In this document: positions 1 through 49,659 of the stretch, one piece after another
Position numbering within the stretch: the stretch's first letter is position 1
Layout of the letters: each line of letters starts with the position of its first letter
IMG/VR virus record: IMGVR_UViG_3300037264_006128
Coordinates: 32,452 to 96,451 of that record
Strand: one strand, 5' to 3'
Source of the DNA: a virus
Length of the DNA: 64,000 nt
Notes under the pieces: generated by a model
Databases searched by the model: none
The model's input: the letters and a program-made list of their open reading frames with translations, nothing else
Told to the model about the DNA's origin: nothing
Position numbers and translations under genes: made by a program

Positions 1-135
1 CGCACGGTAGTCACAGTAGAACAGGCGGTCGTTGTTTGCCGCGAGCAGTGTGACGGTATCCCGATCGAACTCAATCACCCGGACTGCAACTGGCATCCCG
101 CCCAGAACAACCTGAACCACGTTCCCTTCCGCCAT
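1..135 (-). CDS. Hypothetical protein, N-terminal part (runs off window)
   Basis: ATG at 135 opens MAEGNVVQVVLGGMPVAVRVIEFDRD with no stop before the window edge. Confidence 0.55.
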   Translation of the reverse strand, partial: MAEGNVVQVVLGGMPVAVRVIEFDRDTVTLLAANNDRLFYCDYRA

Positions 136-158
136 GATTGCCGCCAGGATCTTTTCCA

Positions 159-695
159 TCACCGCCCATCGCCCAGCGCCTTTTCGATCAGCGCCCGGGT
201 TGCCGGATCCGCCGCCCCCAGTGCTTCCACCGCACGCCGCGTTTCCGTTGCCTTGTCTGCGTCCGTCATTGCACGCACGGTTGCCAGGGCTTCGCTGTAG
301 ATGGCACGGATATCGGCGGGGGACAGGTTCCCCGCAGCGGATTGTTCGCAAGCTGCGTAGAGCGTCGTTCGAAGTACGAGTACAACTTGTGTGCGCCCCG
401 CCAGTTCCACAACGCGCGCCGTCAATTCGGGGGTAAGGCTGCCGGTTGCACCTGCGTAGTTGGCGGTCAGTAAAAGCTTGGCCGTTTGTTCGACAGCAAC
501 ATCCGGGCTTGGCTCAGAGCAGATCGCCCGATGTTCGCCAGCTGGTAGGATGAACGCGCCGCGCCGCGTGGCGTCGTAGTTGGCCCAGTAGGCGCTGCGC
601 GCACCCCCCTTGATTTCCTTGATCCCCGCCGGGGCGGTCAGCATGGAACAGCCAGCGGGAAGAAGGAGCAGTAGGCCGGCTATCGCCTGGCGCAT
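159..695 (-). CDS. Lipoprotein, function unknown (lysis-module associated)
   Basis: N-terminus MRQAIAGLLLLLPAG-C is a signal peptide II with lipobox. Confidence 0.7.
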   Translation of the reverse strand: MRQAIAGLLLLLPAGCSMLTAPAGIKEIKGGARSAYWANYDATRRGAFILPAGEHRAICSEPSPDVAVEQTAKLLLTANYAGATGSLTPELTARVVELAGRTQVVLVLRTTLYAACEQSAAGNLSPADIRAIYSEALATVRAMTDADKATETRRAVEALGAADPATRALIEKALGDGR

Positions 696-895
696 CCCTT
701 CGCCTTCGCTGCCGCAGGCTTTGCCTTCGCCTTCGCCACAACAGGCGCGATCACGTTGGCCTGGACTTGCAGAACTTTCCCAAGCAGATCACCGAGGATG
801 TGCTGCCACATCTTCTTGTCGCGAAGCAAGGCCAGCTTCTCCTTCGACTCCATCTCGATCGCAATCGTCAACTTACGCATCTGCACAACCTTCAT
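680..895 (-). CDS. Small basic hypothetical protein
   Basis: 71 aa, GGGAG RBS upstream, AK-rich tail. Confidence 0.6.
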   Translation of the reverse strand: MKVVQMRKLTIAIEMESKEKLALLRDKKMWQHILGDLLGKVLQVQANVIAPVVAKAKAKPAAAKAKGCARR

Positions 896-913
896 CCGAT
901 TTCTCCCTTTCTG

Positions 914-1477
914 TCAGTTGATCCAGAGCGACGTAGGATCGTATTCCGCACGCCGCAACCATCCATCCAGGAAAACCGCCTGGCCCGGGTTACGCTTCAC
1001 AACTTCCCTGTGGTACTTCGCTTGCAGGTGGGATAATCCGTCGATGACAAGAGGATACCCCTTGATCTCGTCGGCCCGATTCGCGGTGAACGGTCCCAAT
1101 ATGGAATCGATCTTTAGCGCCGCCCCCTGGCCGTGTTCAGCCTGGTAGGCCATGTTCAGGGCTTTCTGGAGGAACTGGATAGCCTTGGGCCCCATCAACA
1201 CCACTTGATCGAACACCTTACAAGCAATCGTAGCAGGCCCCCGCCCGGTAAGCCGCCATAATCCGTTTTTCTGCCACACGTTGCCGTAATACAACTCCAG
1301 CGCATCGGCTAGCGTCAGCTTCGCCGGGTCGGCATCGTCGCCATGCCCGCATTCCCGCAGGAAGCGTTGCGTGATGCCGTACTTCGTGCGCCCGCCAGCA
1401 TCGGCGGGGTGATCCGTGAACCCTTCGCCTTCCCACTGCAACGTGCCGGTGACGGCACGAAGAAAGTCAAGCGTCAT
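914..1477 (-). CDS. Endolysin, glycoside hydrolase family 108 with C-terminal PG-binding-3 domain
   Basis: EGEGFTDHPADAGGRTKYGIT motif; LQKALN, DSILGPFT and VFLDGWLRRA C-terminal motifs. Confidence 0.92.
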   Translation of the reverse strand: MTLDFLRAVTGTLQWEGEGFTDHPADAGGRTKYGITQRFLRECGHGDDADPAKLTLADALELYYGNVWQKNGLWRLTGRGPATIACKVFDQVVLMGPKAIQFLQKALNMAYQAEHGQGAALKIDSILGPFTANRADEIKGYPLVIDGLSHLQAKYHREVVKRNPGQAVFLDGWLRRAEYDPTSLWIN

Positions 1478-1973
1478 CCTCTTCCACTGGATCCTTCAAC
1501 ATCGGCCACAACTGCAACAGCTGTTCCGGCGTGGTTTCCATCGGGATGTCCACCTGCCCGATCCTGTGAACCTTCACTTCGACGGGGCCTTGGATCAGTT
1601 CTTCCAGGTCCTTCTCGTGCTTTTCCTGTTCCGCGATCTCAGCTTCGTACAGCTTCTTCAGTTCCCCTTCGCGGCGTTCGAATTCCGCACGGTTGTCCCG
1701 GATCTGGAACATCTCCCGCCCATTCGGCAGCGTCTGCACGATCGGGTTCCCCCGCTCATCCTTGTCCGACATTTCCACCAACAGGGCATTCCGCGCGTCG
1801 GAATACTTCGAAAACCCCGGCAGGGGCTTCAAGGCATCCGTGATGCTTTCCACTTCATTCCGCAATCGCCGCGCGTTGATCGCCACTGCGTAAGAAAAGG
1901 TGCCGCCCCTGGGCAACCGTTTCTGCATCAGCCCGCGGTAGAACTCCATCACGTCTCGTCGCTTCAGAAGCAT
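1467..1973 (-). CDS. Hypothetical helical phage protein (DUF1617-like)
   Basis: FSYAVAINARRLRNEVE...ARNALL...DKDERGNPI pattern typical of proteins near tail/lysis genes; start MLLKRR after RBS. Confidence 0.6.
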   Translation of the reverse strand: MLLKRRDVMEFYRGLMQKRLPRGGTFSYAVAINARRLRNEVESITDALKPLPGFSKYSDARNALLVEMSDKDERGNPIVQTLPNGREMFQIRDNRAEFERREGELKKLYEAEIAEQEKHEKDLEELIQGPVEVKVHRIGQVDIPMETTPEQLLQLWPMLKDPVEEDDA

Positions 1974-2010
1974 TCGTTCCCCCTTCACTTGCGGATTGCC
2001 AATGCGAGCG

Positions 2011-2040
2011 GTCTTACCACCGCTGGCTGTCGCCTGTCAA
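2011..2040 (-). promoter_or_regulatory. Putative sigma70 promoter for the endolysin subunit of the operon
   Basis: TTGACA-18 bp-(TGG)TAAGAC in the intergenic gap upstream of 1973. Confidence 0.4.
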
Positions 2041-2071
2041 TGCCCAGGCGGTAAATTCGCTTCTAATGGGA

Positions 2072-2659
2072 TCACGGGTAATTGGCCAGGTTCGTCACGC
2101 ACGCCGTGTATTCGGCCGTCAGCTGCCCCCCGCCCACCCACGTTGATTCCATCGTCAGGCGGTTGTACTGCACGGCCTGCCCGCGCGGCAATACGCAATG
2201 CTGCCCAGCAGCGCAGTTCGGATCCCCCACGCAGCACGTTGCCGGCGAACCGCTGCACTTCCCCACGATCGCGTGGGTGCCCGATGAAAACACGACCGTG
2301 AACGGGTTGCTGTTTGGGTCAACGCTGGTTTCTGCGAGCACTTCGCATTCGTTGCTGGCTATCTTTTCCCAGTACCGCAGCTCCGTCCAATCATTCGGGT
2401 CCACCATCGCCCCCGTCAACCCCAACGCCGTGCAGTTCGGATCTTGCACGCCAACCCCATCGCACAGGGTAAGCTGCAAGGCCCCGGTGCTTTGCTCGTT
2501 CACAGAAAGCGTGCAGGTGGGGGCCGTGATTCCTTCGGCAGCAGGCAGTAAGCCGAAAAGGCGGGCCCCAAAAAACAGCGCTACCATCACAGCCAGCCAG
2601 AAGCCGAAGGTGACTAAGGCGGGCAGAATGTTGCCCTCAAAATCCCAATTCTTCTTCAT
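2072..2659 (-). CDS. Exported or membrane-anchored Cys-rich protein
   Basis: Hydrophobic N-terminal segment, about 10 Cys, four DPN motifs. Confidence 0.7.
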   Translation of the reverse strand: MKKNWDFEGNILPALVTFGFWLAVMVALFFGARLFGLLPAAEGITAPTCTLSVNEQSTGALQLTLCDGVGVQDPNCTALGLTGAMVDPNDWTELRYWEKIASNECEVLAETSVDPNSNPFTVVFSSGTHAIVGKCSGSPATCCVGDPNCAAGQHCVLPRGQAVQYNRLTMESTWVGGGQLTAEYTACVTNLANYP

Positions 2660-4425
2660 GGCACTTGGACCTCCTGTGCGTTCATTCCTGGGCTAACCCC
2701 ATCATCGCCAGCTTGCGCGGGGCAACGTTGGGCAACTTCTGCGGCAGAGACAAGCGCAACCGGCGCAGCCCCGGCAGCTTGCGGGGTAACCGCAGCCATG
2801 GGGGGGATGGCAAGCGCTGCCATTTCGGCCGGTACCGGCGTGTTCGTGTGGGTCTTCGTAGGCGTTGCGGTTGGTGTCCATGCGGGGCACCCTTCCACCG
2901 ACACGTCATCAACGTACCAACCGGACCACCCGAAAGATTCGTCCGACCCGAGTCGGAGCCGGAACCTGACCGACATGCCTGCGTAACCGCTTACGTCGGC
3001 AACGACGTGAACGTAACTAGCGAGGTCGGTCCACGCGAGTAAGCCACTCAAGGGGTTCCCGGTAATCGCAAGCGTAGTCGAGTAAGGGCCAATCAGCAGA
3101 TCGTCGTTGGGAACTTGGGCCCACGTCGCCCCGTCGTTCGTCGATACCTCCAGGATTCCACCGTCCCAATCGTCTTCAAGGTCGGGCATGTGCCAGAATT
3201 TGAGGAGTAGTGGGTCTTGCCCAGATGGGAGAACGAGAGAGGGAGACATCAAGCGTTGATCAGAAACACCATCTGGATTGTCGGCGTGGTAAGCGGACAA
3301 CCCGCTGTATGGGTTGCTGGTGAGGATTGCCCAACTGTTATTCGTTCCACTTGAGGTCCACCCATCTGCGCCGGACTCGAAATCGTACGCATGCAACACT
3401 TGCGTGGACGTGCCATAAGAACAGAAGGTTGGTTCTGGTGTGCTAGTTTTGGTTGCGGTTGGCGTTGCCGTAACGGTGGATGTTGCCGTTGTGGTCGAGG
3501 TTCTCGTAACGGTGAATGTTGCCGTTGGGGTCGAGGTCACTGTCGGCGGAGGCCCGCGCACAGCGCGCACCAGGGTGAAATACTGCTGAGCTGGCGCGTA
3601 TTTAGAGACTTTATCCTTAATTGGCCAGTCCAGGAATTGCACGACGTTTTGCTGATTTTGAGTGTACGGGAAGTAGTAATAGCTGCTTGCTGACGCATAC
3701 ATCAGATGGTTCAGCATCCCGGTACAACTACAAGAGGTATTGACGCACCCGGCAACGCACCCTGCATTGAACTCAGGATACACACAAGGACCGCTATTGT
3801 CAGAGCACCCGGGAGCACCGTAGTTGATCAAAGTATCCAACTCCGAGACTGCCGGGACAGAATCTCCCGGTAAACTCACCTGGTTCATCAAGGGGAGCCT
3901 CCAATCGGAGTACCCAGCAAAATTTGAGTCGTTTAGCGCCTTCAGCCACGACCACACCGTGTCGCCGCTAGGGTCGAACGTCACGCATGCGCCAACCAGG
4001 CACATGTCGCACCCACCGTATGGAACCCCGGCGTTCACCCCTCGCGTCACCGAATTGCATAGGGCAGCAAGTTCTGCCGTAGATTGGCAAAACCTCGCCG
4101 CCGCGCACTTCCCAGCCCATTGGTACCCAGCGAGCTTATCGTGTAGCCCGCCAGCCATATCCTTCTTCTCCCACATCAGCCCCGTGCAGTTGTCGGTAGT
4201 GGTGCCGTCACCGTTGTCCGTGAAGCATGAGGTGGGCGTCGGCGTCTGCGTGGCCGTCTGGGTCTGTGTGATCGTCGGCGTTTCTGCCTGCCCAAACGCA
4301 GGTATTGCCCAGACGGCCAGCGCTAGAAGTGTTGCGACGGCGAGGCTGCCACGCATGGGAAGGGGAGCCCGCGTGGCGCCTGGGAGGGGGTGCCTCGCCG
4401 TCACGCTGTCAGATGCCGCCGCCAT
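2656..4425 (-). CDS. Secreted DUF1566 (Lcl-like) protein with Thr/Pro linkers and a jelly-roll domain
   Basis: Signal peptide (MRGSLAVATLLALAVWAIPAFG); FTDNGDGTTTDNCTGLMWEKK, FAGYSDWRLP and VRAVRG DUF1566 motifs; DFESGADGW...GWYVDDVSV domain; start 4425 or 4356. Confidence 0.85.
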   Translation of the reverse strand: MAAASDSVTARHPLPGATRAPLPMRGSLAVATLLALAVWAIPAFGQAETPTITQTQTATQTPTPTSCFTDNGDGTTTDNCTGLMWEKKDMAGGLHDKLAGYQWAGKCAAARFCQSTAELAALCNSVTRGVNAGVPYGGCDMCLVGACVTFDPSGDTVWSWLKALNDSNFAGYSDWRLPLMNQVSLPGDSVPAVSELDTLINYGAPGCSDNSGPCVYPEFNAGCVAGCVNTSCSCTGMLNHLMYASASSYYYFPYTQNQQNVVQFLDWPIKDKVSKYAPAQQYFTLVRAVRGPPPTVTSTPTATFTVTRTSTTTATSTVTATPTATKTSTPEPTFCSYGTSTQVLHAYDFESGADGWTSSGTNNSWAILTSNPYSGLSAYHADNPDGVSDQRLMSPSLVLPSGQDPLLLKFWHMPDLEDDWDGGILEVSTNDGATWAQVPNDDLLIGPYSTTLAITGNPLSGLLAWTDLASYVHVVADVSGYAGMSVRFRLRLGSDESFGWSGWYVDDVSVEGCPAWTPTATPTKTHTNTPVPAEMAALAIPPMAAVTPQAAGAAPVALVSAAEVAQRCPAQAGDDGVSPGMNAQEVQVP

Positions 4426-5129
4426 CAGAACTCCACGTAAACCGGCTTCAACAGCCGCGCATTGCGCCGCCTTGGCAGGCAGCAATCGCCGCCAGCCATC
4501 AATAGCCGGTCCATGTCGTCGAAATTCATGTACATCCGGCCCTTCACGCCCCAACTGCGGCCCCAGGAGTTCTGGCCGATGAAGTACCGCTTCGGGGCGT
4601 TCACGCCGATCCAGACAACTTCATGCCCGCCGACAACGCTGCCCTTTGGGTAGATGAACCCAGTCGAACTTACCCGGCACATATGTTCGTGCCACGACAG
4701 GCCAGTCAACACCGGGCCGCGGTAGGCGATCGCAAGCGCCATCTCGTGCGCCGTGCGTGCCCAGTGGTAGGCATTGTAATACCCCAGCTTCACGCACGCC
4801 TTTGCGCCGGCAGTGGTGGAGGTACCCGAATCGTTGTTCTGGTCGTTGTCCGGATCCTCGTCCAGCGTGGTGGCCAGCCCGTACACCATGTCCCGTGCGT
4901 AGCCGTACGCCGCACGCGAAGATGGGAACTTCACCGGGGCCGGCGTAGCGATCAGTTCGCCCGTGAAGCCGCAGCCGACGCAAGTCGAGTCGTTCCCCTG
5001 CGAAAGCACCAGCGGCAGTTCCCACCGCCACGACTTGAGCGGTCGATCTACATTCATCGCCAACCTCAGCGGGAAGTGCAACGATCGCGGGTCGTGCTCC
5101 GCGTTCCAGCCGAATCGGAATTTCGCCAT
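4425..5129 (-). CDS. Papain-like cysteine peptidase (C1A)
   Basis: QGNDSTCVG (Gln, catalytic Cys), GGHEV (His), QNSWGRSWG (Asn); GAGGAG RBS before ATG 5129. Confidence 0.9.
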   Translation of the reverse strand: MAKFRFGWNAEHDPRSLHFPLRLAMNVDRPLKSWRWELPLVLSQGNDSTCVGCGFTGELIATPAPVKFPSSRAAYGYARDMVYGLATTLDEDPDNDQNNDSGTSTTAGAKACVKLGYYNAYHWARTAHEMALAIAYRGPVLTGLSWHEHMCRVSSTGFIYPKGSVVGGHEVVWIGVNAPKRYFIGQNSWGRSWGVKGRMYMNFDDMDRLLMAGGDCCLPRRRNARLLKPVYVEF

Positions 5130-5152
5130 TATTCTCCTCATCTCAGCGTCGA

Positions 5153-5614
5153 TCATTTGGCCCCCACCCCCAACAACCACGCCAAGAACAAAACCAACAG
5201 TGACCCGACCACAGATGATCCACCACACAATGCGACAATTACTCCGTAACGGCCTCGCAAATGCTCAAGTGCCTCTGCACGTTCGGATCGCAGCATTTCT
5301 GTATGTTCGGCCCGCTCATCTTCGCGCTCTTTTCGCGTGTCCTTCATCACCTGATCAAAGTGCCTAGAACAGTTGGCCTTGATCGAGTCGATGGCCCCGT
5401 GCAGATCGCTGCACATACGCTCCACCTCTCGCGTGCGTGCCAGCAGGCCAGTCATCCCGTTGCCGTCGCCGCGCACCGCAGTCACCATGGCAGTCATGTC
5501 CCGCTGCAACACTCCGAGAATCGTGGAAGCATCACGCAACTCTCCCGTGAGTGATGCCACCAGAGCGTTGCTGCTCGTGACGGCGTGGGCGAGTTCGCGG
5601 ATCAGTTGCTCCAT
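5153..5614 (-). CDS. Coiled-coil protein with C-terminal TM (holin/haemolysin-like, lysis module)
   Basis: GDGNGMTGLLAR motif, coiled coil, C-terminal hydrophobic helix. Confidence 0.55.
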   Translation of the reverse strand: MEQLIRELAHAVTSSNALVASLTGELRDASTILGVLQRDMTAMVTAVRGDGNGMTGLLARTREVERMCSDLHGAIDSIKANCSRHFDQVMKDTRKEREDERAEHTEMLRSERAEALEHLRGRYGVIVALCGGSSVVGSLLVLFLAWLLGVGAK

Positions 5615-6100
5615 CTACTCACCTTTGGTCACGCCCAGTGCGCGTGCCGTATCGCTTAATGCCTCACGAATCTCCACCAGCTCACGCTCGATGCGGCAGC
5701 GGAAGATTGCGTATCGCAGTGTGTGTGCGACCATGAGTGGCGACAGCGCCGTCTTGGGGATGATTTCATCGGCCCCGTCTTCGATCCACTCGATTGCCGA
5801 CTTGTCGTGCTCGGACGTTGTAAACACAACAATCGGCACGTCGGGGGCAAGTCCCTTGAGCCGTTGCACGGACTCCGTGCTGTTCGCGCCAGGAACCGTC
5901 GCGTCCAGCAGCACTACATCAGGTGGTTGCCGAATCGCCTCCTCCATCATGTCCAGTGTGGCTAGTGTATTCACCACGAAGGGCGCGGTGGTTTCTGAGC
6001 CATTGGCAAGCCACTCGCGCACACGTTGGGCAGTCTCGTGCTCTGCCTGGACGACCAGCACACGAATCGGAGGAGGAAGCAGTCGGCTGCGATGATTCAT
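5615..6100 (-). CDS. Stand-alone response-regulator receiver domain protein
   Basis: IRVLVV...PDVVLLD...PIVVFT...GADEIIPK CheY-like pattern plus C-terminal helix; start MNHRSR at 6100. Confidence 0.88.
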   Translation of the reverse strand: MNHRSRLLPPPIRVLVVQAEHETAQRVREWLANGSETTAPFVVNTLATLDMMEEAIRQPPDVVLLDATVPGANSTESVQRLKGLAPDVPIVVFTTSEHDKSAIEWIEDGADEIIPKTALSPLMVAHTLRYAIFRCRIERELVEIREALSDTARALGVTKGE

Positions 6101-6291
6101 AGATCCCTCACGCGACCAACGAACTCTTGCATCTCTTCCGTCACGCCCCGCAATCGCGCTTGTACATCCTCCAACTGCGCGCATGTGTCGCGCAGGCAAA
6201 CGGGGGCATCTAGGGGCCGCGCATACGACAACCGCAAGTAGCGATCCGGCACTGCCGCAACGAGCATCGTGGGCGCGACGACTAAGCACAT
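6097..6291 (-). CDS. Small hypothetical protein
   Basis: TAATG-coupled to the upstream gene and ATGA-coupled to the downstream gene; 64 aa. Confidence 0.5.
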   Translation of the reverse strand: MCLVVAPTMLVAAVPDRYLRLSYARPLDAPVCLRDTCAQLEDVQARLRGVTEEMQEFVGRVRDL

Positions 6292-6578
6292 TACTTCTTC
6301 TCGTCCACGAGAGCAGTAGCTGTTGCGACCCGCTCCTCTTTGCGCAACTCCGGCAAGGTCTTGTTCATCTCGCCGGCTGGGATTAGGCCACCGAGGCCCT
6401 GCATCGCTGCGGCAACAAACAGCCACGTCTCGCGGTCTATGAGCATGAACATGAACGCCGGTAGCGTCCAGGTAATAGCTGCGGCAGACAGCCCAGCTCC
6501 ACCTGTCAGCAGAACCAGCCGGGCGTACCGCGCGAACGCCGATTCGTCCCAGAGTAGTCGCTTCAAGAATGCAAGCAT
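6291..6578 (-). CDS. Putative holin (2 TM)
   Basis: 95 aa, two hydrophobic segments, charged C-terminus, AGGAGG RBS. Confidence 0.6.
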   Translation of the reverse strand: MLAFLKRLLWDESAFARYARLVLLTGGAGLSAAAITWTLPAFMFMLIDRETWLFVAAAMQGLGGLIPAGEMNKTLPELRKEERVATATALVDEKK

Positions 6579-6589
6579 CTCGCTCCTCC

Positions 6590-8506
6590 TTATCCTGGCG
6601 CCTGGTAGTAGTGCGTCCGTGTCGGCGCCACCGTCCTGGTCCTAGTTGCCACTTGCCCGCAAAAAAAGCCACCCCGCAGTTCGCCGCCGTCCAGCTCCGC
6701 GCACGGCGTCTCAGGAACGGGTGTGGGCGTGATCGTGGGTGTAGGCGTCCGTGTCGCTCCGCAATATTCACAGTCAAGACTCATCTGATCCACCCCAACG
6801 CCAGCACCAGCTGATCGCATCATATTCCACGTGAATCCAGTGTCTACACTGTTGACCAGATCGGGCGTCCAGGGGTAGTCAGACACGTACTCGATGATCT
6901 CGTCATCCGCAGGGTCGACAGAGTGCTGGACGTCCTGATAGTCGGACAGATCGGACCCTACTGGCACGGGGGTTATTCCCGGAGCTACAAAGCGCGCATG
7001 ATTATCCCAGACCCATTTTGTTCCCGGCGTTGCTGGAATCGCTCGCACTTCTACCCTGCCGGTGAGTTTGATGCCTGTCGCTTCCGTGGGAATCGGAGTA
7101 AGGTCAAATCCCGAGCAACGCATATAGCACCCATTGCCGCCATTAGGGTTGACAACGATGACTCCAGGCGTAGCCTCTCCATGCGGCGCGTACACGTTAT
7201 CACTCTCCTGCGCATATTCCGGGTGTCCCAAACAATAGCCCCCTGTGGTGTTTCGGCAGTACGTCGGCTTCGCCCGCTGTGTATACAAACCGCCTGCGGG
7301 GCACGTCGGCGTGGGTGTCGCCGCTGGTGTAATTGTCGGAAGACCACGTAACCCCCAGGCGTAGTATCCCGCCGTTGGGGCATTGCATGGCCCCTCCGCA
7401 ACAAAACCATTTGGATCAGTACTGAGGGTCAGGCCACGCTGAATTAGATCGGTATTACCTTGCAGGTACGGATTCGTGGCTAGGTCTGATTGATTATGAC
7501 GCAAGCCACGACACAAGTAAGCGGTTTTTGCGTCGGACGTTATCATCGCCATGCGGGCCATTCCACCGACATTAATAGCCTGCGGTTCCCTTCCGACACC
7601 AGACCAGGTGCTGGTCCATAACCAGTTGCTAACCTCAGCGTTCTTTTTTGCGGCAAAGAAGTAGTATGTTTTCCCCCCCAACACCAGATCGCCAGAGGCA
7701 ACGAACCCCGTGTCTGAGAATGTCAGTAACCCAGTGCCGCACGACGTTACACCTGTAGCCTGAAGGTAAGCGCACGACGTCGTAGTTGGCATGTCTGAGG
7801 TTTTGATTTGGTTGTATTCGGTAAAGCTCGAAGTCGTAATCGTCATCAGTACATCTGGACGCCAACCGAAATCGACCGCTTGAGTAACGCCACTGCCAAT
7901 CCAGGCACCATCTGTCGCTAATGCCCAGCTTTTGCCAAAGGCGTAGTAACAAAACCGAGTATTGTTCTGATTCACATTTTGGTTTGTCCCGAGAGTGAAC
8001 CCATTATCCGTAAGGTCTAAGATTTGGGTTGTATAGCAGGTGGTTCCCCCCTGCCATCCACACGATAAATCCGATGGCATTGTGTCGGTCGCTAGAACGC
8101 CAGAGAAGTCATCGTATGCGCTTCTCACAAACACTATAGATGAGCGAAACCCAACGGTGATCTCGCGAGCAACGCCCGTTCCTGTGTAACAGTCAAACGC
8201 AACGTCCACGAATGCGGGGGGCGTTGGGCTCGATCCAGGGGTGATTGTGGGGGTGCGAGTCCAGGTAGGGGTGTGTGTTTGTGTCGGTGTTCTTGTCAGT
8301 GTTTCCGTCGGTGTTGGGGTTCGAGTCGGAGTAATCGTCCTCGTGTTGGTCGCGGTATTCGTGGGGACAGTCGCGGTTTCGGTGGCTGTCGGAACCGTGG
8401 CCGTCTCGGTTGGCGTCTCAGTAGGGACTGTTTCTGTCGGCGACTGCGCCCACAGCGGCGCGGCGACCAGCAGGCACAGCGCGATCGCAGCAAAGGACTG
8501 CTTCAT
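6590..8506 (-). CDS. Secreted Thr/Pro-rich protein with three YTGxG-type virion repeats and a C-terminal beta-sandwich
   Basis: Signal peptide MKQSFAAIALCLLVAAPLWA; ~75-aa T/P tract; YTGTGVAREITVGFRS, WIGSGVTQAVDFGWRPD and WSGVGREPQAINVGG repeats. Confidence 0.8.
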   Translation of the reverse strand: MKQSFAAIALCLLVAAPLWAQSPTETVPTETPTETATVPTATETATVPTNTATNTRTITPTRTPTPTETLTRTPTQTHTPTWTRTPTITPGSSPTPPAFVDVAFDCYTGTGVAREITVGFRSSIVFVRSAYDDFSGVLATDTMPSDLSCGWQGGTTCYTTQILDLTDNGFTLGTNQNVNQNNTRFCYYAFGKSWALATDGAWIGSGVTQAVDFGWRPDVLMTITTSSFTEYNQIKTSDMPTTTSCAYLQATGVTSCGTGLLTFSDTGFVASGDLVLGGKTYYFFAAKKNAEVSNWLWTSTWSGVGREPQAINVGGMARMAMITSDAKTAYLCRGLRHNQSDLATNPYLQGNTDLIQRGLTLSTDPNGFVAEGPCNAPTAGYYAWGLRGLPTITPAATPTPTCPAGGLYTQRAKPTYCRNTTGGYCLGHPEYAQESDNVYAPHGEATPGVIVVNPNGGNGCYMRCSGFDLTPIPTEATGIKLTGRVEVRAIPATPGTKWVWDNHARFVAPGITPVPVGSDLSDYQDVQHSVDPADDEIIEYVSDYPWTPDLVNSVDTGFTWNMMRSAGAGVGVDQMSLDCEYCGATRTPTPTITPTPVPETPCAELDGGELRGGFFCGQVATRTRTVAPTRTHYYQAPG

Positions 8507-8522
8507 GGAAGAATCACGCCCA

Positions 8523-8636
8523 TCAATCGTCTCGCTTACTGAAGAAGTGCTCACACGCGATCAACACCAGGACCACGGTAAAGAGCCCATAGAGGAAGCC
8601 GCAGAAGATCGTGTCAAGCACACCTATGTCGTTCAT
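8523..8636 (-). CDS. Small single-TM peptide (37 aa)
   Basis: [37 protein letters not shown] fills the gap between two secreted-protein genes. Confidence 0.45.
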
Positions 8637-8643
8637 TTCATTA

Positions 8644-9624
8644 TCAGAGGAAGATCCACGGGGTGTCGCCCCCTGGGACTTCAGTTGCGGTTGCTGTCTC
8701 GGTCATCGTGACAGTAACCGTGTGCGTTGCGGTTTGTGTCGGCGTCTCAGTTGGAACGGTTGCCGTCGCTGTCTCGGTTGGTGTCTCAGTAGGGACCGTC
8801 GCCGTCGGCGTGTTCGTCGGGGTTGCCGTCGGCGTCTCCGTCGGCGTGTTGGTCGGTGTTTGCGTCGGCGTCGCCGTCGGGGTTTCCGTCGGCGTGTTGG
8901 TCGGTGTTTGCGTCGGCGTGTTGGTCGGTGTTTGCGTCGGCGTCGCCGTCGGCGTGTTGGTCGGCGTGCTCGTGGGGACAGTGCTTGTCCGGGTTTGGGT
9001 AGGAGTTCGCGTAACCGTTGGGGTTGGGTTGTTGTAATAGATACGCACTTCAATATGGTTTACACGAGCGGTATTCGTTGTTACTCCTGTCTTTAAAACA
9101 CCAATAGCGACACCCCACGTAGCAGAATTGACAAATGCGCTATCCCATGTGCTTCCCCAAAGGTCAGTAGAACCACCGTAGGTGACATACGCCTCACTTG
9201 CAGCTACGGGCCAAGCAGTACCGGACGCTTTATCGGTCCCAGTTAGGAACCCAACCCACACCGTTTTGACAACCTTGTCCACAAAATTTGTTGATGTGCC
9301 CGACGAACTCTTCTTAAACCGTGCCTCCATACCTACCACTTGGCTTCCGACTGGGATCGAAAAACCCCAGTTGTATCCAGCGAGGCAGTCCGAGAAGTTC
9401 CCATTAGTTGGCGCGGCAGTAGCACGATTCGTGTCGTCAGCTACTATGTAACTGTCGTTTGACCAGGGGTAGGGGGAATTACAAAGTGCGTCGCCAGTAG
9501 CCGTTCCATGGGTCGTTGACCCTGGGCTAGTCCATGCCGTTACTTCAACCGCAAGCGTTTGCCGTGATGCAAACGCTGTGATCGCAGCAACACAAAGCAA
9601 AATGGCCAGAACTTGGCGCATCAC
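8644..9624 (-). CDS. Secreted protein: beta-sandwich domain plus ~120-aa mucin-like Thr/Pro tail
   Basis: Signal peptide [18 protein letters not shown]; [13 protein letters not shown] and [12 protein letters not shown] motifs; (TPT[N/Q/E/A])n tail. Confidence 0.82.
8700..9030. repeat. Degenerate 12/24-bp tandem repeat encoding TPTx units
   Basis: Repeated gtcggcgtgttg / gtcggtgtttgc units. Confidence 0.9.
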
Positions 9625-10226
9625 ATTGCTGCAACCACGAGGTTTTTCAGCCGTGTGTGGCCGATAAGAGTTAGATGATACTCGTCACGGAAATACCTAA
9701 TCCCGTAGGGCAGACCGGCCTGTGTTTCGACGACGATCTTCCCGGTGCAGACCTGCCGGATCGCAGCGCGATAGTTATCGAGTGTCAGACCGAGGGTGTT
9801 TGTCTCACCATCGTGCGCGTTCGGCGGTGGGATAACGCACACGACCTGCGCGTAGGGCCATGAATCGCACATTACCGAGTAAGCAGCGGTGAAATCGGCA
9901 AGCGTCGTAGATAGTATCCAATCGTTTGTACCGAGCAGGACGAACAACCGAGTTGCCCAGAGATCCTGCAAAGGTGGGACGTACGAGACGACTGCGCCGC
10001 CCATGTTCCAGAAAAACGGCTCAGTTGGGTTCCCCGCCGTCTGCCCCTCGCGCGCAAAGACGTGAGGCAAGAAATTCAGCGAATTGGACACCTGCCCCCA
10101 CCATAAGTTATCCGTGTTCCCAAACGTGGTGTCTCGCGTGAGGCTATCCCCTACGAAAGCGACCGGCTCAAGTGTAGCCGCACACGGCGCGCAGAGGAGC
10201 GCGAGCAACAGCAACATTTTTTTCAT
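9621..10226 (-). CDS. Secreted SGNH/GDSL hydrolase (esterase)
   Basis: Signal peptide [17 protein letters not shown]; FVGDSLT (block I), LGTND (block III), DEYH (block V). Confidence 0.9.
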
Positions 10227-10229
10227 TTC

Positions 10230-11192
10230 TCATTCCCCCAACTGATCGGTTGGGTACAGCACCGACACCGACAGCAGTTTGATGTCTGCAACAGTCGTGT
10301 TAGTGGTGTCCACCACGGTGTAACAACTCAGAGAGTCACCAGAGTTACATGGCCCGTCGATAAACACACCCAGCGCTTGCGTATGCACACGATCATTCGC
10401 CACGCCGTGAACAATGTCTGCATCCTTCTTTATACCCCAGGTATTGTTTTCTGGATCGTCACCAGTGCGGCAGTGACAGTAGAGATCAAGGGCTAGGGTG
10501 CCAGAACCAGCAGCTTGCCAGCTTGTAAACAGGAGGTTAATGGTTGTCTCACCTGACGACCACTCCTCTGGCATCCGCTCCACGCCGAAGTCAAAACGAC
10601 CATCGGCATGATCAGCGCAGGTGACGGTACTCTTGAACGGGCCACTGTTGAGCTGTTCGGTTGCTTTGACACACTGGGCACCATCCACTACCCAGGCACC
10701 AGTATGGATCAGAATAGGCTTGATCGGCCAGCTCGCGGTGAAGGTATTGCTCTCAGTGGTCAGGATGCCGGACGAAGCCCCGGTGATCCCAACAACGTCA
10801 TTCGGATCAACGCAATGCGAGCACGCGAGGTTCGCAACATCAACTTCGTCAGCACCGCCGTTGGAATGACGAGCAGCGTGGGTGTTGATCGTGGCGAGGT
10901 GCGCCAGGTCGCCGGTTGGCGATTGGCAGGCGTAGTCCGTGTTCGGATCCCCGCACCGGTTGTCCACATCGCCGCACCACATTTCACCACCAACGACTGC
11001 GGGCGGCACCCCGGCCGTTACGCCGCAGTTCGGGTAGAGCGTCATCCCGGCAGGCTTGCTCGGGTTCATGTTCCGCGCCGCCTGGGTATCGCAGGTTTGG
11101 ACGCCCGCCACTTCAACGCAGGCCGCGCCCCAGGCAGAGACCGGCAAGGAAACTGCAAGAATAAGAAGGGTTGCTAGTCTGAGATTCTTCAT
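10230..11192 (-). CDS. Secreted Cys-rich protein with a tail-fibre-like motif
   Basis: Signal peptide MKNLRLATLLILAVSLPVSAWG; ~14 Cys; HAARHSNGGADEV motif. Confidence 0.75.
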   Translation of the reverse strand: MKNLRLATLLILAVSLPVSAWGAACVEVAGVQTCDTQAARNMNPSKPAGMTLYPNCGVTAGVPPAVVGGEMWCGDVDNRCGDPNTDYACQSPTGDLAHLATINTHAARHSNGGADEVDVANLACSHCVDPNDVVGITGASSGILTTESNTFTASWPIKPILIHTGAWVVDGAQCVKATEQLNSGPFKSTVTCADHADGRFDFGVERMPEEWSSGETTINLLFTSWQAAGSGTLALDLYCHCRTGDDPENNTWGIKKDADIVHGVANDRVHTQALGVFIDGPCNSGDSLSCYTVVDTTNTTVADIKLLSVSVLYPTDQLGE

Positions 11193-11569
11193 GCAGGGGC
11201 CTCGTGCTCGTGATCGTGCAGTATGATGCGGAAGCGAAATGCAACGTCGAATCCGTCAACATCCCCGCCCTCGTCAAATACAACACGGAAGCGGTCGCCG
11301 TCGTAGACACCAACCGGGCCTAGGTCGGTTTGCGCCTCGGTTGTGGTTGTCGCGATTGCGTTCCCACCGGGCAGGTGCCCGAACGTAGGCATGTCCCTAG
11401 TTTTGCGCTGCACGGCAAACACGCCGGAACCAGAAACGGTGGCATGCTCCACGCCGATCAGCCACGCCTTCTGCCCTGGGCCGACCGCAATGAACAGGGC
11501 GTGGGTGGTTACACCGCCAAGCGGGCCTACGATCGCCAGACATTCCGCCCTGTAGATCTCGTGTGCCAT
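11189..11569 (-). CDS. Hypothetical beta-rich protein (tail-fibre associated)
   Basis: TGATG-coupled to the tail fibre gene. Confidence 0.6.
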   Translation of the reverse strand: MAHEIYRAECLAIVGPLGGVTTHALFIAVGPGQKAWLIGVEHATVSGSGVFAVQRKTRDMPTFGHLPGGNAIATTTTEAQTDLGPVGVYDGDRFRVVFDEGGDVDGFDVAFRFRIILHDHEHEAPA

Positions 11570-14500
11570 CAGCTATCCACTGCAAGCGTAACCGTGTACC
11601 CGTCGCCGAAGGTAACCTTCAGGTCCCCATCGGCCGTGTCTACAAAGATGGTCGCTGTGCCTGCGATGGCAGCCGGTGCGGTTACGCCGTCCGTGATGCC
11701 CAAGACGCCCGCAGCCCCGCCAAGCCGCAACGCGAGGTTTGGGTGGGCATTGATGTCAACGCCAAGGTGGTTGTCGATCCGAACCTGGTCCCCGTCTATG
11801 GTAACCACTTCGCTTCCGGCGGGATCGCCCAGATACGTACCGCCGTTGGCAATCTTGAACTTGTCCCCATCGCTGTTATCGACCCCGAGAACCCAATCGT
11901 AAGTTCCGGTGATGCAGAAGTGGATGTACGTGTCCGCATCGCTGTCGTTCTCGATCTTCATCCATGCGTGTTCGTTGGCCGTGTTCCGGTAGATGTGCAG
12001 CATGGACTCTGGCGTCGGCAGCACTGTTTCTGGGGTTAACAGCAGGGTGCCCGCCAAGAGGCTATCTTCCGTGCCCGTCTGTTTGATGCCCCATCGGTTT
12101 GTTGCCGTGCCCGTTACCGTGAATGCCGGAAGGAGGAGGCCAACAGCGTCCGTTGCTTCCCCCGCCACGGAAACCGCAGCTTCAACCCCAGCAAGAACAG
12201 CAACCACGCCACCTGTAGCCCCGGCGTACGCCCTGCCGTACACGCCAACAACCTTTGCGGCGGTACCGCTGCCGTAGTGTAGGGCATATCCGTAGAGCCC
12301 GGAAAGATTCGGATAATTGCCTGCGGTAAGATCCATCGCGCACGCAACGGCGGACGCTGCCCGGCCTTGCACTCCCGTGAAACCAGCCACAGAAGCTGAA
12401 GCGGGGTCCGCTTCGACGCTAGCATAGGCCGCCGGTTCGAGAGTAGCCCCAATCGCGGTGTAAGATGCTGGCTCGACACTCAGAAAGCCGGGCCTCGTAG
12501 GGTACGACGTTGCATCGTGGACAACGACGGAACCCGTACCGCTTAAGACCTCGAATCCCTTCGACGGCTTTACCGAACTGCCGAAAATCGTACGCCCCGC
12601 GAACACGTTGCACTGGTCCGTGCTCGGCTGGTAAATCCCGTAGTTGTTCGTTGCCGATGCGCCAAGGTCGTCTGCGATGTACACCCGGTAGGCGTTGGTC
12701 ATCGTAGCGTTGTTAGTGATGCCGACGTACAGGCCGTAGGCGTCTGTGATCGTACCGCTGCCGTCGTGGGTAACCTGGGCGTAGAGCGCGCGTAGGCGGT
12801 TAAGATCGCCGCTTCCCGTGGGCCAAATGTGGAAATAGCCTCCGTCCGAGTTGTAGCTGTCGCCAGATCCGGTAACTGTCAACGTGCCGCTGAACAGACG
12901 GAACGTTTCCCCCGCAGCAGCACCGGTGAGCGTTGCGGTGAGGTTTGAGATGAAGGCGAAGGCGCTTGTGTGCTCGGATGGGGTAACATCGACACGTACC
13001 ATGCCGTCGCTTTGGATGGCGCGATAAGCCTGGTCCCCCGCCACCACATAGAGTGGAACGGTGGTAGAGGCTGCCGGCGTGGCAACTTTGAGTAGATAGT
13101 TCGAATCGCCAGTGCCTGCCGCCTCTTCGGTGACCACGAACCCTAACTGGTTGTCGTTGCCACTGAAGTTCCACCGCCACGTTTGGGTGTATGCCTCGCA
13201 GTCTATTGTGCTGGCTGCGGCGGCGTCCCCAAGCCCAGAAATGTACCCAAGCGGGCCTACTACCACACCAGCGTCGTCTTCTGTGTACAGCCCGTCTGAC
13301 TTGAAGAACAACCGCCAGTGATCGGCATCGGGATCGCCAGCCGGGTTCCCCGCCAGTTCCCGCCACAGGATGGTGCGGTCATCTGGGATCGAGAAAACGT
13401 GGGTTGAGCCGTCTAGGATCTCCAGGTACCGGCCAACCCCATCGCTAGTAAGCCGCAACAACGGTTTGTCGTCTGTAACGTTGTCTGCGAAAATCTCCAC
13501 GATCGCTTCTGCAGGTGCAGATGTGGAATCCCTGTAGAAATACCCAGCCCGCCCGGTTGTCGAACTGCCGTAAATCCCAGTACCAGATGCGCTGCTTCCG
13601 GTCGTGCCGACACCAATCGTTCCGGTTCCCTTCACGCCGCTCTTGCCGGCGGTGCTTGCGCTACCTACGATAGCGTCCTTGCCATCGCCGACGACGTTGA
13701 ATTCCCCGCTGCCAGAGAATGCGTTGATGCAGACGCTTGCGGCATCGCCGTCAACAAAGAACAGCGGAGTTGCGCCCGTTCCGTACACGGCGAAGTCGTA
13801 GGCGGACTGTGTCGCGTTGACAACGAACGCGGTGTTCCCAACTGAGACGATCTCGTCACTCCCGATATACGCATACAGTAAACCGGCGTCTGGGCTTGCT
13901 ACCTTCAGAAGCAACGCCGCCTGCGTTGCGGTGGCATCCTGGTCTTCAATCTGCACCACAGGTTCGGTTGGGGAACTTTGCGCCCGCAGAAAATACCCAG
14001 CCTGCACTGCGCCCCCGCTGGCCATGATGGTTGCGCCTAGATTGCCCGGCGTTGTGGCCGTTGCCCCATCCATCGCCGCCACGATCGCACCGTAGGCCGT
14101 ACCGCCCTGCCCCAGGGCGTAGATTGCCGGCCGCGCGGTGCCCACAGAGGAAGCGTGAAATACCCCAAGTGCCGTGCCGGAAGCGTTCACGAACACCGCA
14201 TTCGTGCCTGCGTCGATGTTGAAGGCGTACTCTAGGCCGGTTGTTTCGACACGCAAGTTCCAATCAGCCCCAGCGTCGTTGAACACGGTGTCCGTTGTCG
14301 CCGGTTGCCGCAGGGCGTACTGCGTGTGGTCGTCGTCGGCAAGGCCGGCCAGATCCCCGTGGTGCACAACGCCGCCAGTCAGCACGGGGCCGACTTCCAC
14401 GCCGGCATCGCTGACGTAGTACAATCCACCTGCCTTGAAGTACAACTTCCATTGGCCTGTACTTGGAACAACCGGCTTCGCGCCAATTTCGGTGACAAGT

Positions 14501-15348
14501 AAGCTGTGGGCGCCAAGCTGCAGGTCCCCGGCCATCACTCTGGTGCCGTCCGCGAGTACGTACTGCGAATGGTCGTCGTCGGCAAGGCCGGTCAGCCCCC
14601 CGTGGTCCGTTACGCCACCCCCGCCTGCACCAAGCGGCCCTATTTCCGCCCCGGTAGCGTCTTGGTAGTACAAACCGTCCGACTTGGCGTAGGCGAAGAT
14701 CGATCCTGCGGCGGGATAAACTGCGGGGGTAGCGCGATTGTAAAGCTGAAGCGTACGGTTTGCGACACGCAGGTCTTCCTGAAGTGATCCAGCCCGCATC
14801 GAGGAGATCGCCAGGTAGGCATCCAGACCTGTGGCAATGTTCGCATCCTCCCATGCCCACACGAACTTCGCCGCAAGGTTGCTCGTTCCGCCGTCATCTT
14901 CCAAATACACAGGCAGGGCGCCACCGAACCCATCTTGGGCTGCGCCGGTCGTGTTCAGCTTCAGCGTCAGTAGGTCGTAGACTGCCGCAGTGCCGGCCAC
15001 CTCCCGTTCGACAACCACGCCGTTCGAAACGGTCGTTGGGATGTTGATGGTAGTTGAACCGTCCGCGAGAACGTACTCGCTTCCCTGTTTTCCGTCGAGC
15101 AAGTCCGCATCTAGGCCAGTGTCGTGCCCATCCTGAAACGAGAGCGCCCACAGCACATCCTCTGGGTCTAGGTTGGCCCCCGGGATGTAACTGCCGTCAA
15201 GCATTGGAATGCCATCGGTCGCGTTGCGGGCTGCGATGATGATGTTGACGGCATCCACCAAATCAAGAAGGTCCTCCCTCGCATCGTCCGGGTCCTTGCT
15301 TGAATCGATCAGGTTGCTGCGGTTGATTGGGGCGGTTGGCCACGACAT
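11569..15348 (-). CDS. Long tail fibre protein
   Basis: GLDADLLDGKQGS and repeated GLADDDHxQY fibre motifs; Gly/Ala/Thr-rich; follows the tip gene; AAGGAG RBS before ATG 15348. Confidence 0.85.
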   Translation of the reverse strand: MSWPTAPINRSNLIDSSKDPDDAREDLLDLVDAVNIIIAARNATDGIPMLDGSYIPGANLDPEDVLWALSFQDGHDTGLDADLLDGKQGSEYVLADGSTTINIPTTVSNGVVVEREVAGTAAVYDLLTLKLNTTGAAQDGFGGALPVYLEDDGGTSNLAAKFVWAWEDANIATGLDAYLAISSMRAGSLQEDLRVANRTLQLYNRATPAVYPAAGSIFAYAKSDGLYYQDATGAEIGPLGAGGGGVTDHGGLTGLADDDHSQYVLADGTRVMAGDLQLGAHSLLVTEIGAKPVVPSTGQWKLYFKAGGLYYVSDAGVEVGPVLTGGVVHHGDLAGLADDDHTQYALRQPATTDTVFNDAGADWNLRVETTGLEYAFNIDAGTNAVFVNASGTALGVFHASSVGTARPAIYALGQGGTAYGAIVAAMDGATATTPGNLGATIMASGGAVQAGYFLRAQSSPTEPVVQIEDQDATATQAALLLKVASPDAGLLYAYIGSDEIVSVGNTAFVVNATQSAYDFAVYGTGATPLFFVDGDAASVCINAFSGSGEFNVVGDGKDAIVGSASTAGKSGVKGTGTIGVGTTGSSASGTGIYGSSTTGRAGYFYRDSTSAPAEAIVEIFADNVTDDKPLLRLTSDGVGRYLEILDGSTHVFSIPDDRTILWRELAGNPAGDPDADHWRLFFKSDGLYTEDDAGVVVGPLGYISGLGDAAAASTIDCEAYTQTWRWNFSGNDNQLGFVVTEEAAGTGDSNYLLKVATPAASTTVPLYVVAGDQAYRAIQSDGMVRVDVTPSEHTSAFAFISNLTATLTGAAAGETFRLFSGTLTVTGSGDSYNSDGGYFHIWPTGSGDLNRLRALYAQVTHDGSGTITDAYGLYVGITNNATMTNAYRVYIADDLGASATNNYGIYQPSTDQCNVFAGRTIFGSSVKPSKGFEVLSGTGSVVVHDATSYPTRPGFLSVEPASYTAIGATLEPAAYASVEADPASASVAGFTGVQGRAASAVACAMDLTAGNYPNLSGLYGYALHYGSGTAAKVVGVYGRAYAGATGGVVAVLAGVEAAVSVAGEATDAVGLLLPAFTVTGTATNRWGIKQTGTEDSLLAGTLLLTPETVLPTPESMLHIYRNTANEHAWMKIENDSDADTYIHFCITGTYDWVLGVDNSDGDKFKIANGGTYLGDPAGSEVVTIDGDQVRIDNHLGVDINAHPNLALRLGGAAGVLGITDGVTAPAAIAGTATIFVDTADGDLKVTFGDGYTVTLAVDS

Positions 15349-15375
15349 GATGGGCACTCCTTTTGCTTTCTTCTA

Positions 15376-19500: not shown

Positions 19501-19502
19501 GA

Positions 19503-35211: not shown

Positions 35212-35213
35212 TA

Positions 35214-37733: not shown

Positions 37734-37765
37734 AGGGGACCCTCTGCTCCTAAATGCCCCCCCTG

Positions 37766-47068: not shown

Positions 47069-47071
47069 ACC

Positions 47072-47620: not shown

Positions 47621-47622
47621 AA

Positions 47623-48252: not shown

Positions 48253-48282
48253 TTCAATCCTCGGCTACTTAGCTGTGCAGGA

Positions 48283-49017: not shown

Positions 49018-49033
49018 TGTCAGAACTACCTTC

Positions 49034-49657: not shown

Positions 49658-49659
49658 TG

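Follow-up and report, generated by a model that had tools for sequence, protein, structure and literature searches.

We analyzed a 64-kb stretch of viral DNA (hereafter the window), which runs from base 32452 to base 96451 and so makes up the final 64 kb of one virus record of 96,451 bp (IMGVR_UViG_3300037264_006128). On its minus strand, 13 co-oriented genes lie between a tail fibre gene and an endolysin gene, and six of their products carry an N-terminal export signal or membrane anchor. We tentatively read this block as a tail-distal accessory module of a novel siphovirus, whose exported products act on glycans of the host envelope. Phage-encoded, exported proteins acting on the envelope are a known kind; what is new is a family that joins a predicted signal peptide to a conserved tip resembling a carbohydrate-binding module (CBM), and that neither Pfam nor PHROGs matched in our scans. 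Coordinates are window positions unless marked as genome, and genes are named after their minus-strand stop coordinates (g10230 and so on; Table 1).

Export signals were called by a rule-based scan combined with inspection, and are therefore predictions of that kind rather than the output of a trained predictor such as SignalP or DeepTMHMM. The rule asked for a positive n-region, a hydrophobic h-region of 7-15 residues, and small residues at -3 and -1. Among the roughly 120 open reading frames (ORFs) of the 96-kb genome, it was matched by 5 of the 13 block genes versus 2 of the 107 genes elsewhere (Fisher p=1.3e-4), and the only two credible matches outside the block are lipobox proteins near the endolysin (g159, and one at genome 31216-31893). 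In the five block proteins the h-regions span 9-15 uncharged residues, and the predicted sites for Sec export and cleavage by signal peptidase I (SPase I) are VSA/WG in g10230, CAA/TLEP in g9621, AFA/SRQ in g8644, LWA/QSP in g6590 and AFG/QAE in g2656, the slash marking the cut. The canonical lipobox [LVI][ASTVI][GAS]C is absent from all five; g9621 has only the lipobox-like residues LLC and APC. The remaining protein, g2072, has one N-terminal transmembrane segment (residues ~10-40) and no cleavage site, and is therefore taken to be a membrane anchor. An earlier reading of the window, made from its sequence only, had listed six genes with an N-terminal signal or anchor, and all six are indeed present on the minus strand, ending at the stops that name them, as five signals and one anchor.

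The assignment of starts matters for these calls. The start of g6590 is ATG 8506, not GTG 8554. That of g2656 is most likely ATG 4425, within a TGATG overlap with the stop of the upstream peptidase gene, and the signal is retained whether this start or the alternative ATG 4356 is used. A transmembrane segment at the beginning of ORF 4425-5228 was rejected as an artefact of taking the longest ORF, the coupled start being ATG 5156 in an ATGA overlap. The public call of the g6590 ORF (P0002, 461 aa) begins at an internal GTG; we consider the long ORF real because its homology to another protein, P0003, begins upstream of that public start. Since the public call loses both the signal and the Thr/Pro tract that follows it, exported phage proteins are likely undercounted in viral catalogues.

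The block is tightly linked to the structural genes. The fibre gene, g11189, g10230, g9621 and g8644 are chained by overlaps of 1 or 4 nt or by gaps of 3-11 nt: the fibre stop codon overlaps the next start by 1 nt, and g11189 overlaps g10230 by 4 nt. The same spacing joins g6590 to g6291, g5153 to g4425 and g2656, and g2656 to g2072, the last pair by a 4-nt overlap with AGGAGG upstream of g2072. These overlaps and few-nucleotide gaps bear out the co-orientation and tight spacing that had been described for the block. In window 1-16000 we counted 7 promoter-like sites (5.4 expected) and 10 terminator-like sites (14.3 expected), using a sigma-70-like consensus, which may not be that of the host, and terminators of the intrinsic type. 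As the genes are chained from the fibre stop onwards and neither kind of site is enriched, the block reads as part of the late transcript.

In composition, too, the block proteins stand apart from the rest of the genome. Their Thr+Pro content is 15-34%, against a median of 10% in the other genes (p=1e-4), and the three long Thr/Pro tracts noticed earlier are real: they lie in g8644, g6590 and g2656 and are encoded by 12-nt tandem DNA repeats. Their Cys content is 0.9-5.1%, against a median of 1.55% (p=0.012). The sequence-only reading had called most of the proteins Cys-rich, which holds for the block as a moderate enrichment but not for g8644 and g9621. Paralogy among the block genes was rejected, as an all-against-all BLASTP gave nothing below E=0.01. 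We also rejected the block as a target of a diversity-generating retroelement: there is no template repeat, only the Thr/Pro tracts repeat, and a blastn search with the block as query found no match elsewhere in the genome.

The new family was defined from g10230. Directly after its predicted cleavage site stands an N-cap motif, CVE..G..TCD.Q.AR, followed at residues 90-135 by a single HxxxHxxGGxDE unit of fibre type and at residues ~150-320 by a CBM-like jelly-roll tip domain. The protein has no Pfam or PHROG match, and seven homologues bearing the domain have no PHROG match either. A word-indexed search returned g10230 itself only, and an exhaustive HMMER search returned 214 representative clusters at E<=0.001, 149 of which were inspected. 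The tip domain was present in 125 of these 149 homologues, in 124 of them at the C-terminus, and the strict signal rule was passed by 83 of the 109 tip-domain homologues that start with Met (at least 76%, as the visible false negatives include P0011, P0027 and P0035). Tip-domain homologues have a median Cys content of 2.3%, and their alignment contains near-invariant cysteines. Homologues sharing only the HxxxHxxGGxDE unit are different: a signal was found in 2 of 17, and median Cys content among the other 15 is 0.1%. Long proteins that lack a signal and have almost no Cys contain 5-14 copies of this unit, and at least one of them (P0017) matches tail-fibre PHROGs. No second copy of the tip domain was found elsewhere in the genome, for instance in the fibre, and tblastn of g10230 and g2656 against cultured phages gave no match.

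In the AlphaFold model of g10230 (AF2, 47 sequences), residues 150-320 form the jelly-roll with a predicted local distance difference test score (pLDDT) >90, and the N region is of low confidence. The nearest solved folds found by Foldseek are CBM22, CBM35, CBM6 and Eph ligand-binding domains, while the nearest predicted viral structures belong to uncharacterised proteins of uncultured tailed phages, to the C-termini of collagen-repeat proteins and to tailspikes. The nearest ESM-Atlas clusters are proteins of 173-237 aa, 94-100% viral in the feature search; in the structure search four of the five rows were 89-100% viral, and the fifth was a bacterial sialidase cluster. Both the N-cap and the tip are shared with two longer signal-bearing proteins, P0006 (712 aa) and P0010 (1163 aa), so that g10230 looks like the short form of a cap-stalk-tip design. 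The canonical signals, the conserved tip cysteines of g10230 and the homologues that share the design of signal plus domain argue that late, co-transcribed phage proteins are routed through Sec into an oxidising compartment. This routing had been proposed earlier, and we regard it as well supported by inference.

The arrangement was seen in other viruses. Signal-bearing, Cys-rich proteins with a g10230-type C-terminal tip lie 3' of tail genes in three other viral contigs, L050, L053 and L054, and one protein among these loci has 94 Cys in 1,264 aa. Two signal-bearing proteins of L054, one with such a tip and 1,990-2,009 aa long (according to which start is chosen) and the other of 412 aa, directly precede a GH24 endolysin and holin-like small hydrophobic proteins. 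In one of the other two contigs, which is 44 kb long, P0011 comes after a terminase fragment (by eye), a homologue of a portal or head-tail adaptor, a major head protein and a virion structural protein, and is followed by two proteins with hydrophobic starts and 21 and 94 Cys. In the other, an IMG/VR contig, P0012 follows a tail protein of 1907 aa and a signal-bearing protein of 958 aa. Since it appears in three other viral contigs, the order of tail genes, exported Cys-containing proteins and lysis genes is not peculiar to this phage.

The other exported products carry domains of related kinds. The esterase g9621 scored 34.7 bits against PF13472 (cutoff 32.9), retains complete catalytic blocks (GDSL, GTND and DEYH, corresponding to blocks I GDS, III GxND and V DxxH) and matches the esterase portion of the tail-fibre family phrog_5240. 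No solved structure matched g9621 or g2656 by sequence. The domain of g8644 stands at the extreme N-terminus, without a signal, in its homologues P0154 and P0155, and behind a signal and before a type IX secretion system (T9SS) sorting domain in P0156. By tblastn it is found, likewise signal-less, as the N-terminal domain of an uncultured podovirus's 'tail tubular protein A' (753 aa), at residues ~10-162. An AF2 model of g8644 compared with VIA gave Z 8-8.7 to CBM32, MAM and CBM36, a generic level; its structure matches in BFVD are phage tail proteins, and its nearest clusters, like those of the g10230 domain, are overwhelmingly viral.

The central domain of g6590 aligned with P0003 over 249 columns, or ~240 residues (BLASTP E=4e-12). 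P0003 begins with a pilin-like N-terminus and contains six DUF7483 stretches as well as Thr/Pro linkers. Its PHROG matches are phrog_24898, a tail-fibre family, and phrog_19943, a family of virion structural proteins. The DUF7483 model itself (PF24299) did not hit g6590 directly, so that the relation runs through P0003 only. In g2656, the matches to PF07603 (DUF1566/Lcl_C; 31.1 bits, E=3e-7) and PF20773 (InhA-like MAM; 25.6 bits, E=1e-5) fall just under the cutoffs of 34.9 and 26.9, respectively. No Pfam or PHROG family was found for g2072.

We infer with good confidence that the five signal-bearing products are exported, probably with cleavage by SPase I, and we hypothesize a function for them. 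In our model, the block would be transcribed together with the late structural genes; five products would leave the cytoplasm through the host Sec pathway and be cut by SPase I, and the sixth, g2072, would be anchored in the inner membrane, facing outward. The exported proteins would fold with disulfides outside the cytoplasm, in the envelope of a probably diderm host; a GH108 endolysin, lipobox proteins and AXA-type cleavage sites all point to such a host. Here, beta-sandwich or lectin-like modules of carbohydrate-binding type and one SGNH esterase would be displayed on extended Thr/Pro spacers, and signal-carrying copies of tail-fibre or tail-tip modules would in this way reach the envelope from inside the infected cell. 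Because these modules are of the host-recognition type, we propose that late in infection they bind or de-acylate the same envelope glycans as the virion, for example the phage's own receptor, lipopolysaccharide (LPS) or the capsule, or else peptidoglycan that is O-acetylated. On the dying cell, and on debris from it, receptors would in this way be masked or destroyed, and lysis would perhaps become easier. The esterase might also de-O-acetylate peptidoglycan ahead of the muramidase. The exported products probably act in the host envelope. Observed are the order and coupling of the genes, N-termini that resemble signals, the homologies and folds of the domains, and the return of the design in other viral contigs; export and cleavage as such, disulfides, a diderm host, the glycans targeted and the masking of receptors belong to the model.

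In its proposed action the block comes closest to exported proteins that block receptors and have their genes beside receptor-binding ones, except that it would be aimed at glycans. Cor of T1 and phi80 is a superinfection-exclusion and receptor-blocking protein encoded beside a receptor-binding gene. Llp of T5 is an exported receptor blocker whose gene adjoins that of the receptor-binding protein (PMC9586334; 10.64898/2026.03.26.714494), and receptor blocking protects phage progeny (10.1101/2024.03.05.583538). Like the block products, Llp and Cor are encoded by phages beside host-recognition genes; they are exported by Sec, as is predicted for the block, and they act on the receptor from within the cell and guard the progeny from debris, as we propose for the block. 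They are, however, small lipoproteins that bind an outer-membrane protein, whereas the block products are of SPase-I type, have 180-640 aa, present lectin-like or esterase modules on Thr/Pro linkers and come five or six in a row.

A second comparison is with the 21 MAT fibres of Bdellovibrio bacteriovorus, each of which starts with a signal peptide and continues with a conserved N-domain (PMC10769870). The succession of signal, conserved N-module, variable stalk and diverse, phage-fibre-like C-terminal tip is common to them and to g10230, P0006 and P0010. MAT fibres are chromosomal genes of a predator and carry a beta-rich N-domain of ~130 aa and an S74 chaperone-protease, whereas the block consists of phage late genes, in which Pfam and PHROG scans found neither Peptidase_S74 nor another fibre-shaft family. 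The Bdellovibrio protein Bd1399 (8okh) was a weak fold match to the g10230 tip (TM-score 0.2-0.3), and no sequence similarity to MAT fibres turned up, although no direct comparison with MAT sequences was made. The block belongs neither to the Llp/Cor group, since its proteins have no lipobox and are not small, nor to the MAT fibres, since it lacks S74 and detectable similarity.

Other known proteins share single traits with the block. Phages of Porphyromonas gingivalis have signal-peptide genes of unknown function, which were read as using the general secretion pathway of the host and potentially shaping its physiology (Matrishin et al. 2023, PMC10367356). They resemble the block in being phage genes with Sec signals, but that study mentions neither domains of tail-fibre type nor Thr/Pro tracts nor a tail-distal cluster, and the host phylum differs. 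SGNH esterases and carbohydrate-binding tips of the same domain types occur in phage tail fibres and tailspikes (phrog_5240; the carbohydrate-binding domain of the short fibre of cyanophage A-1(L), 8ke9); there they are signal-less parts of virions assembled in the cytoplasm, whereas in the block they are free-standing behind export signals. PblA and PblB of Streptococcus mitis phage SM1 are tail-fibre-like phage proteins that end as adhesins on the bacterial surface. They differ in having no signal peptide and reach the surface through holin/lysin-dependent release. As far as we found, the recurrent design described here is undescribed in print for tail-fibre-type domains.

Several observations weigh against an envelope-acting module. 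The signals are predictions by rule and inspection; no ligand can be assigned to any module, and the CBM-like folds are generic (a VIA Z of ~8 is middling); and the DUF1566 and MAM matches of g2656 lie under the Pfam cutoffs. The known exclusion proteins Llp and Cor are small lipoproteins, which the block proteins are not. That the N-cap and tip of g10230 recur in signal-bearing homologues of 712 and 1163 aa, and that one of P0006 and P0010 carries widespread tail-fibre shaft motifs, would also fit a real appendage. Finally, no close phage relative was found that could show conservation of the block.

The exported proteins might, then, be appendages or decorations of the virion that mature in the periplasm and dock onto particles at lysis. 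Their domains are of virion type, as judged from DUF7483 and PHROGs, the viral structure matches and tail tubular protein A; g10230 shares its logic of N-cap, stalk and tip with the longer P0006 and P0010; the exported genes are translationally coupled to the tail fibre; and in L053 and L054 signal-bearing proteins, including the longest one of L054, fill the usual fibre slot. We nevertheless find this fairly unlikely. Two fibres without a signal, a J-like central one and one of 1262 aa, are already present in this phage; the proteins predicted to be exported consist of globular modules on Thr/Pro linkers rather than shafts, no tail-attachment domain was recognised in them, and we know of no tailed phage whose tail is assembled after lysis. 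A broader version, which we hold to be decidedly unlikely, would have part of the host-recognition apparatus made extracytoplasmically, with Sec export, disulfides and possibly O-glycosylation of the Thr/Pro tracts, and joining virions only at lysis; the g10230-type family, with its ~200 mostly viral clusters, would then mark a widespread and undescribed assembly route. The position of the block would also fit lysogenic-conversion cargo (morons), that is, secreted adhesins or enzymes of host origin that benefit the lysogen through attachment, biofilm formation or polysaccharide use. The slot between tail fibre and lysis genes is the classical site for cargo, of which lom and bor of lambda are examples. 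The codon-usage score per codon is 0.06-0.14 in the block versus 0.15-0.25 in the core structural genes, and the domains have relatives in cellular proteins (the pilin-like P0003 and the T9SS-secreted P0156). Against this stand the overwhelmingly viral neighbours of the g10230 and g8644 domains and the lack of an integrase, none having been seen in passing, although no search was aimed at integrases. Moreover, sigma-70-like promoters (possibly not the host's type) and intrinsic terminators are not in excess and the genes overlap late genes, so that expression looks late-lytic rather than lysogenic, and we judge a cargo function unlikely.

We think it very unlikely that an extended lysis system includes part of the block, at least its SGNH esterase, its small membrane proteins and the anchored g2072, which would help the endolysin, for example by removing O-acetyl groups from peptidoglycan and so letting the GH108 muramidase cut. 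The block does abut the endolysin, next to which no holin lies, and it holds holin-like small membrane proteins (6291-6578 and 5153-5614); periplasmic SGNH esterases acting on O-acetylated peptidoglycan (Ape) exist. Such a role would, however, cover only one or two of the six proteins, and lectin-like modules and Thr/Pro spacers have no known part in lysis.

The sequence-only reading had gone further and suggested glycosylation of the Thr/Pro tracts, with sugars supplied by an operon at 43-51 kb, as an undescribed phage glycoprotein-export system. The sugar-modification operon is real: its twelve genes (window 43221-51586, minus strand) precede a ParB-methylase-PLP fusion and the packaging genes, and their products include GT9, GT4, GT2, WbqC, DegT, GNAT, DUF2334/deacetylase, DUF6625, two methyltransferases and a sulfotransferase. 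A link to the block was not supported, since the operon, although co-oriented, lies 32 kb away and its products show no clear transmembrane segment and all look cytoplasmic. Every ORF of the 96-kb genome has two hydrophobic segments at most, and the phage consequently has no flippase, Wzy/PglL-type oligosaccharyltransferase or accessory Sec channel of its own. Glycosylation of the tracts thus found no support, Thr/Pro stretches being ordinary spacers as well, and with no glycosylation or export machinery of the phage's own the proposed system is speculation. That the operon nevertheless builds a sugar attached to the exported proteins seems to us highly improbable. Thr/Pro tracts are typical O-glycosylation sites, and GT9-family heptosyltransferases (Aah/TibC) O-glycosylate autotransporters in the cytoplasm before Sec export; as the operon includes a GT9-family enzyme, an O-heptosylation of this kind is conceivable, though unsupported, and enzymes of the host might conceivably be used as well. 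Mycobacteriophages likewise glycosylate virion proteins with transferases of their own (cf. PMC11256854). On the other side, the genome encodes no polytopic membrane protein, the operon sits beside the ParB-methylase fusion and packaging genes rather than the block, Thr/Pro linkers are commonly unglycosylated spacers in secreted multidomain proteins, and sugar operons of phages can equally serve LPS, capsule or DNA modification. The candidate targets of the operon are LPS, capsule, the virion or DNA.

Tailed phages are taught to make their virion and host-recognition proteins in the cytoplasm. In this phage and at least three further viral contigs, fibre-type domains follow predicted secretion signals in genes at the tail-distal end of the late operon. 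If they are exported receptor blockers or destroyers, as we favour, they would extend the principle of Llp and Cor from protein to glycan receptors and would be a source of new lectins and esterases pointing to the phage receptor. If they are virion parts, tailed-phage assembly would have an unrecognised extracytoplasmic branch.

Table 1. Features of the block, its late-operon surroundings and the comparable loci in other viral contigs. Signals, anchors and domain assignments are predictions.
Feature	Coordinates	Strand	Description
portal	36219-37769	-	
scaffold and major head protein	34282-36041	-	
tail tube	28293-29537	-	
tape measure	22828-27453	-	
distal tail and tail proteins	within late operon	-	
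J-like central fibre	15376-19503	-	matches phrog_31 and phrog_5616
tail fibre	11569..15357	-	upstream boundary of block; 1262 aa, 0.4% Cys, no signal peptide
126-aa protein (g11189)	11189..11569	-	no signal, no Pfam/PHROG match; links fibre to exported genes
g10230	10230..11192	-	signal peptide, Cys N-cap, one fibre-type motif, C-terminal tip; 14 Cys
g9621	9621..10226	-	signal peptide, minimal SGNH/GDSL esterase
g8644	8644..9621	-	signal peptide, 170-aa CBM/MAM-like beta-sandwich, 130-aa Thr/Pro tail
g6590	6590..8506	-	signal, 95-aa Thr/Pro tract, DUF7483-like domain, Thr/Pro linker, C-terminal domain, further Thr/Pro stretch; 18 Cys
small membrane protein (g6291)	6291..6578	-	holin-like candidate; 95 aa, AGGAGG upstream, no family match
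receiver-domain protein	5615..6100	-	stand-alone response-regulator receiver domain, cytoplasmic; PF00072 E=2.4e-11, phrog_731
153-aa protein (g5153)	5153..5614	-	helical by eye; single C-terminal transmembrane segment, residues 123-153; no family
peptidase homologue (g4425)	4425..5156	-	papain family (C1), cytoplasmic after start correction; phrog_16701 E=1.6e-41, PF00112
g2656	2656..4425	-	signal, short Thr/Pro tract, Cys-rich DUF1566/Lcl_C-like domain, Thr/Pro linker, InhA-like MAM domain, further Thr/Pro stretch
g2072	2072..2659	-	N-terminal anchor, 150-aa domain with 10 Cys
endolysin	914..1477	-	downstream boundary of block; GH108 and PG_binding_3, no signal
g159	159..695	-	lipoprotein-like; 178 aa, LLLLLPAGC, 3' of endolysin, no family
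comparable locus in L054	4535-13870		
comparable locus in L053	7128-11863		
comparable locus in L050	10001-17098		

Some genes of the block encode products that are not exported. In the small membrane protein g6291, whose gene has a strong ribosome-binding site, one hydrophobic segment was scored (residues 29-47), and a second was recognised by eye. The peptidase homologue g4425 also gave weak matches to cathepsin B. The receiver-domain protein encoded in the middle of the block may interfere with two-component signalling of the host.

Pfam and PHROG scans showed that a siphovirus-type late operon is complete on the minus strand. The tail fibre gene follows that of the J-like central fibre and encodes a repeated DDH-QY fibre motif. 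The N-terminus of the J-like fibre has two hydrophobic helices without a charged n-region; as the phrog_5616 alignment starts at residue 2, a hydrophobic N-terminus seems to be a family trait. Beyond the endolysin the late strand runs on into genome 31216-32437 (14-1235 nt before the window start), which encodes a 183-aa protein with a HELAH motif and a second lipobox protein (LAAAGC). These two proteins and g159 could be spanin-like or further envelope proteins.

The left 32 kb of the record holds further phage genes. We rejected the idea that the block is flanking host DNA, a possibility raised with the sequence-only reading: it lies inside a single 96-kb virus record, with phage genes on both sides, and is therefore phage DNA. 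The portal shares no more than 32% identity with its counterpart in any cultured phage, and searches of IMG/VR with g10230, g6590 or the J-like protein as query found no close relative, which makes the phage a singleton lineage. The genome contains no tRNA genes.

Two further repeat-bearing regions were observed in the window. A 216-aa ORF (55583-56233, minus strand) consists in its C-terminal third of AAWAAAGDAGDAAG-type repeats, which are encoded by a 9/12-nt tandem DNA repeat in 17 copies (55645-55891). Between positions 53000 and 54800, several near-identical intergenic repeats of 35-40 nt (families D7, D10 and D14) contain CATCAC(C/T)CCTCC, the reverse complement of a ribosome-binding site with its start context, and precede small minus-strand genes.

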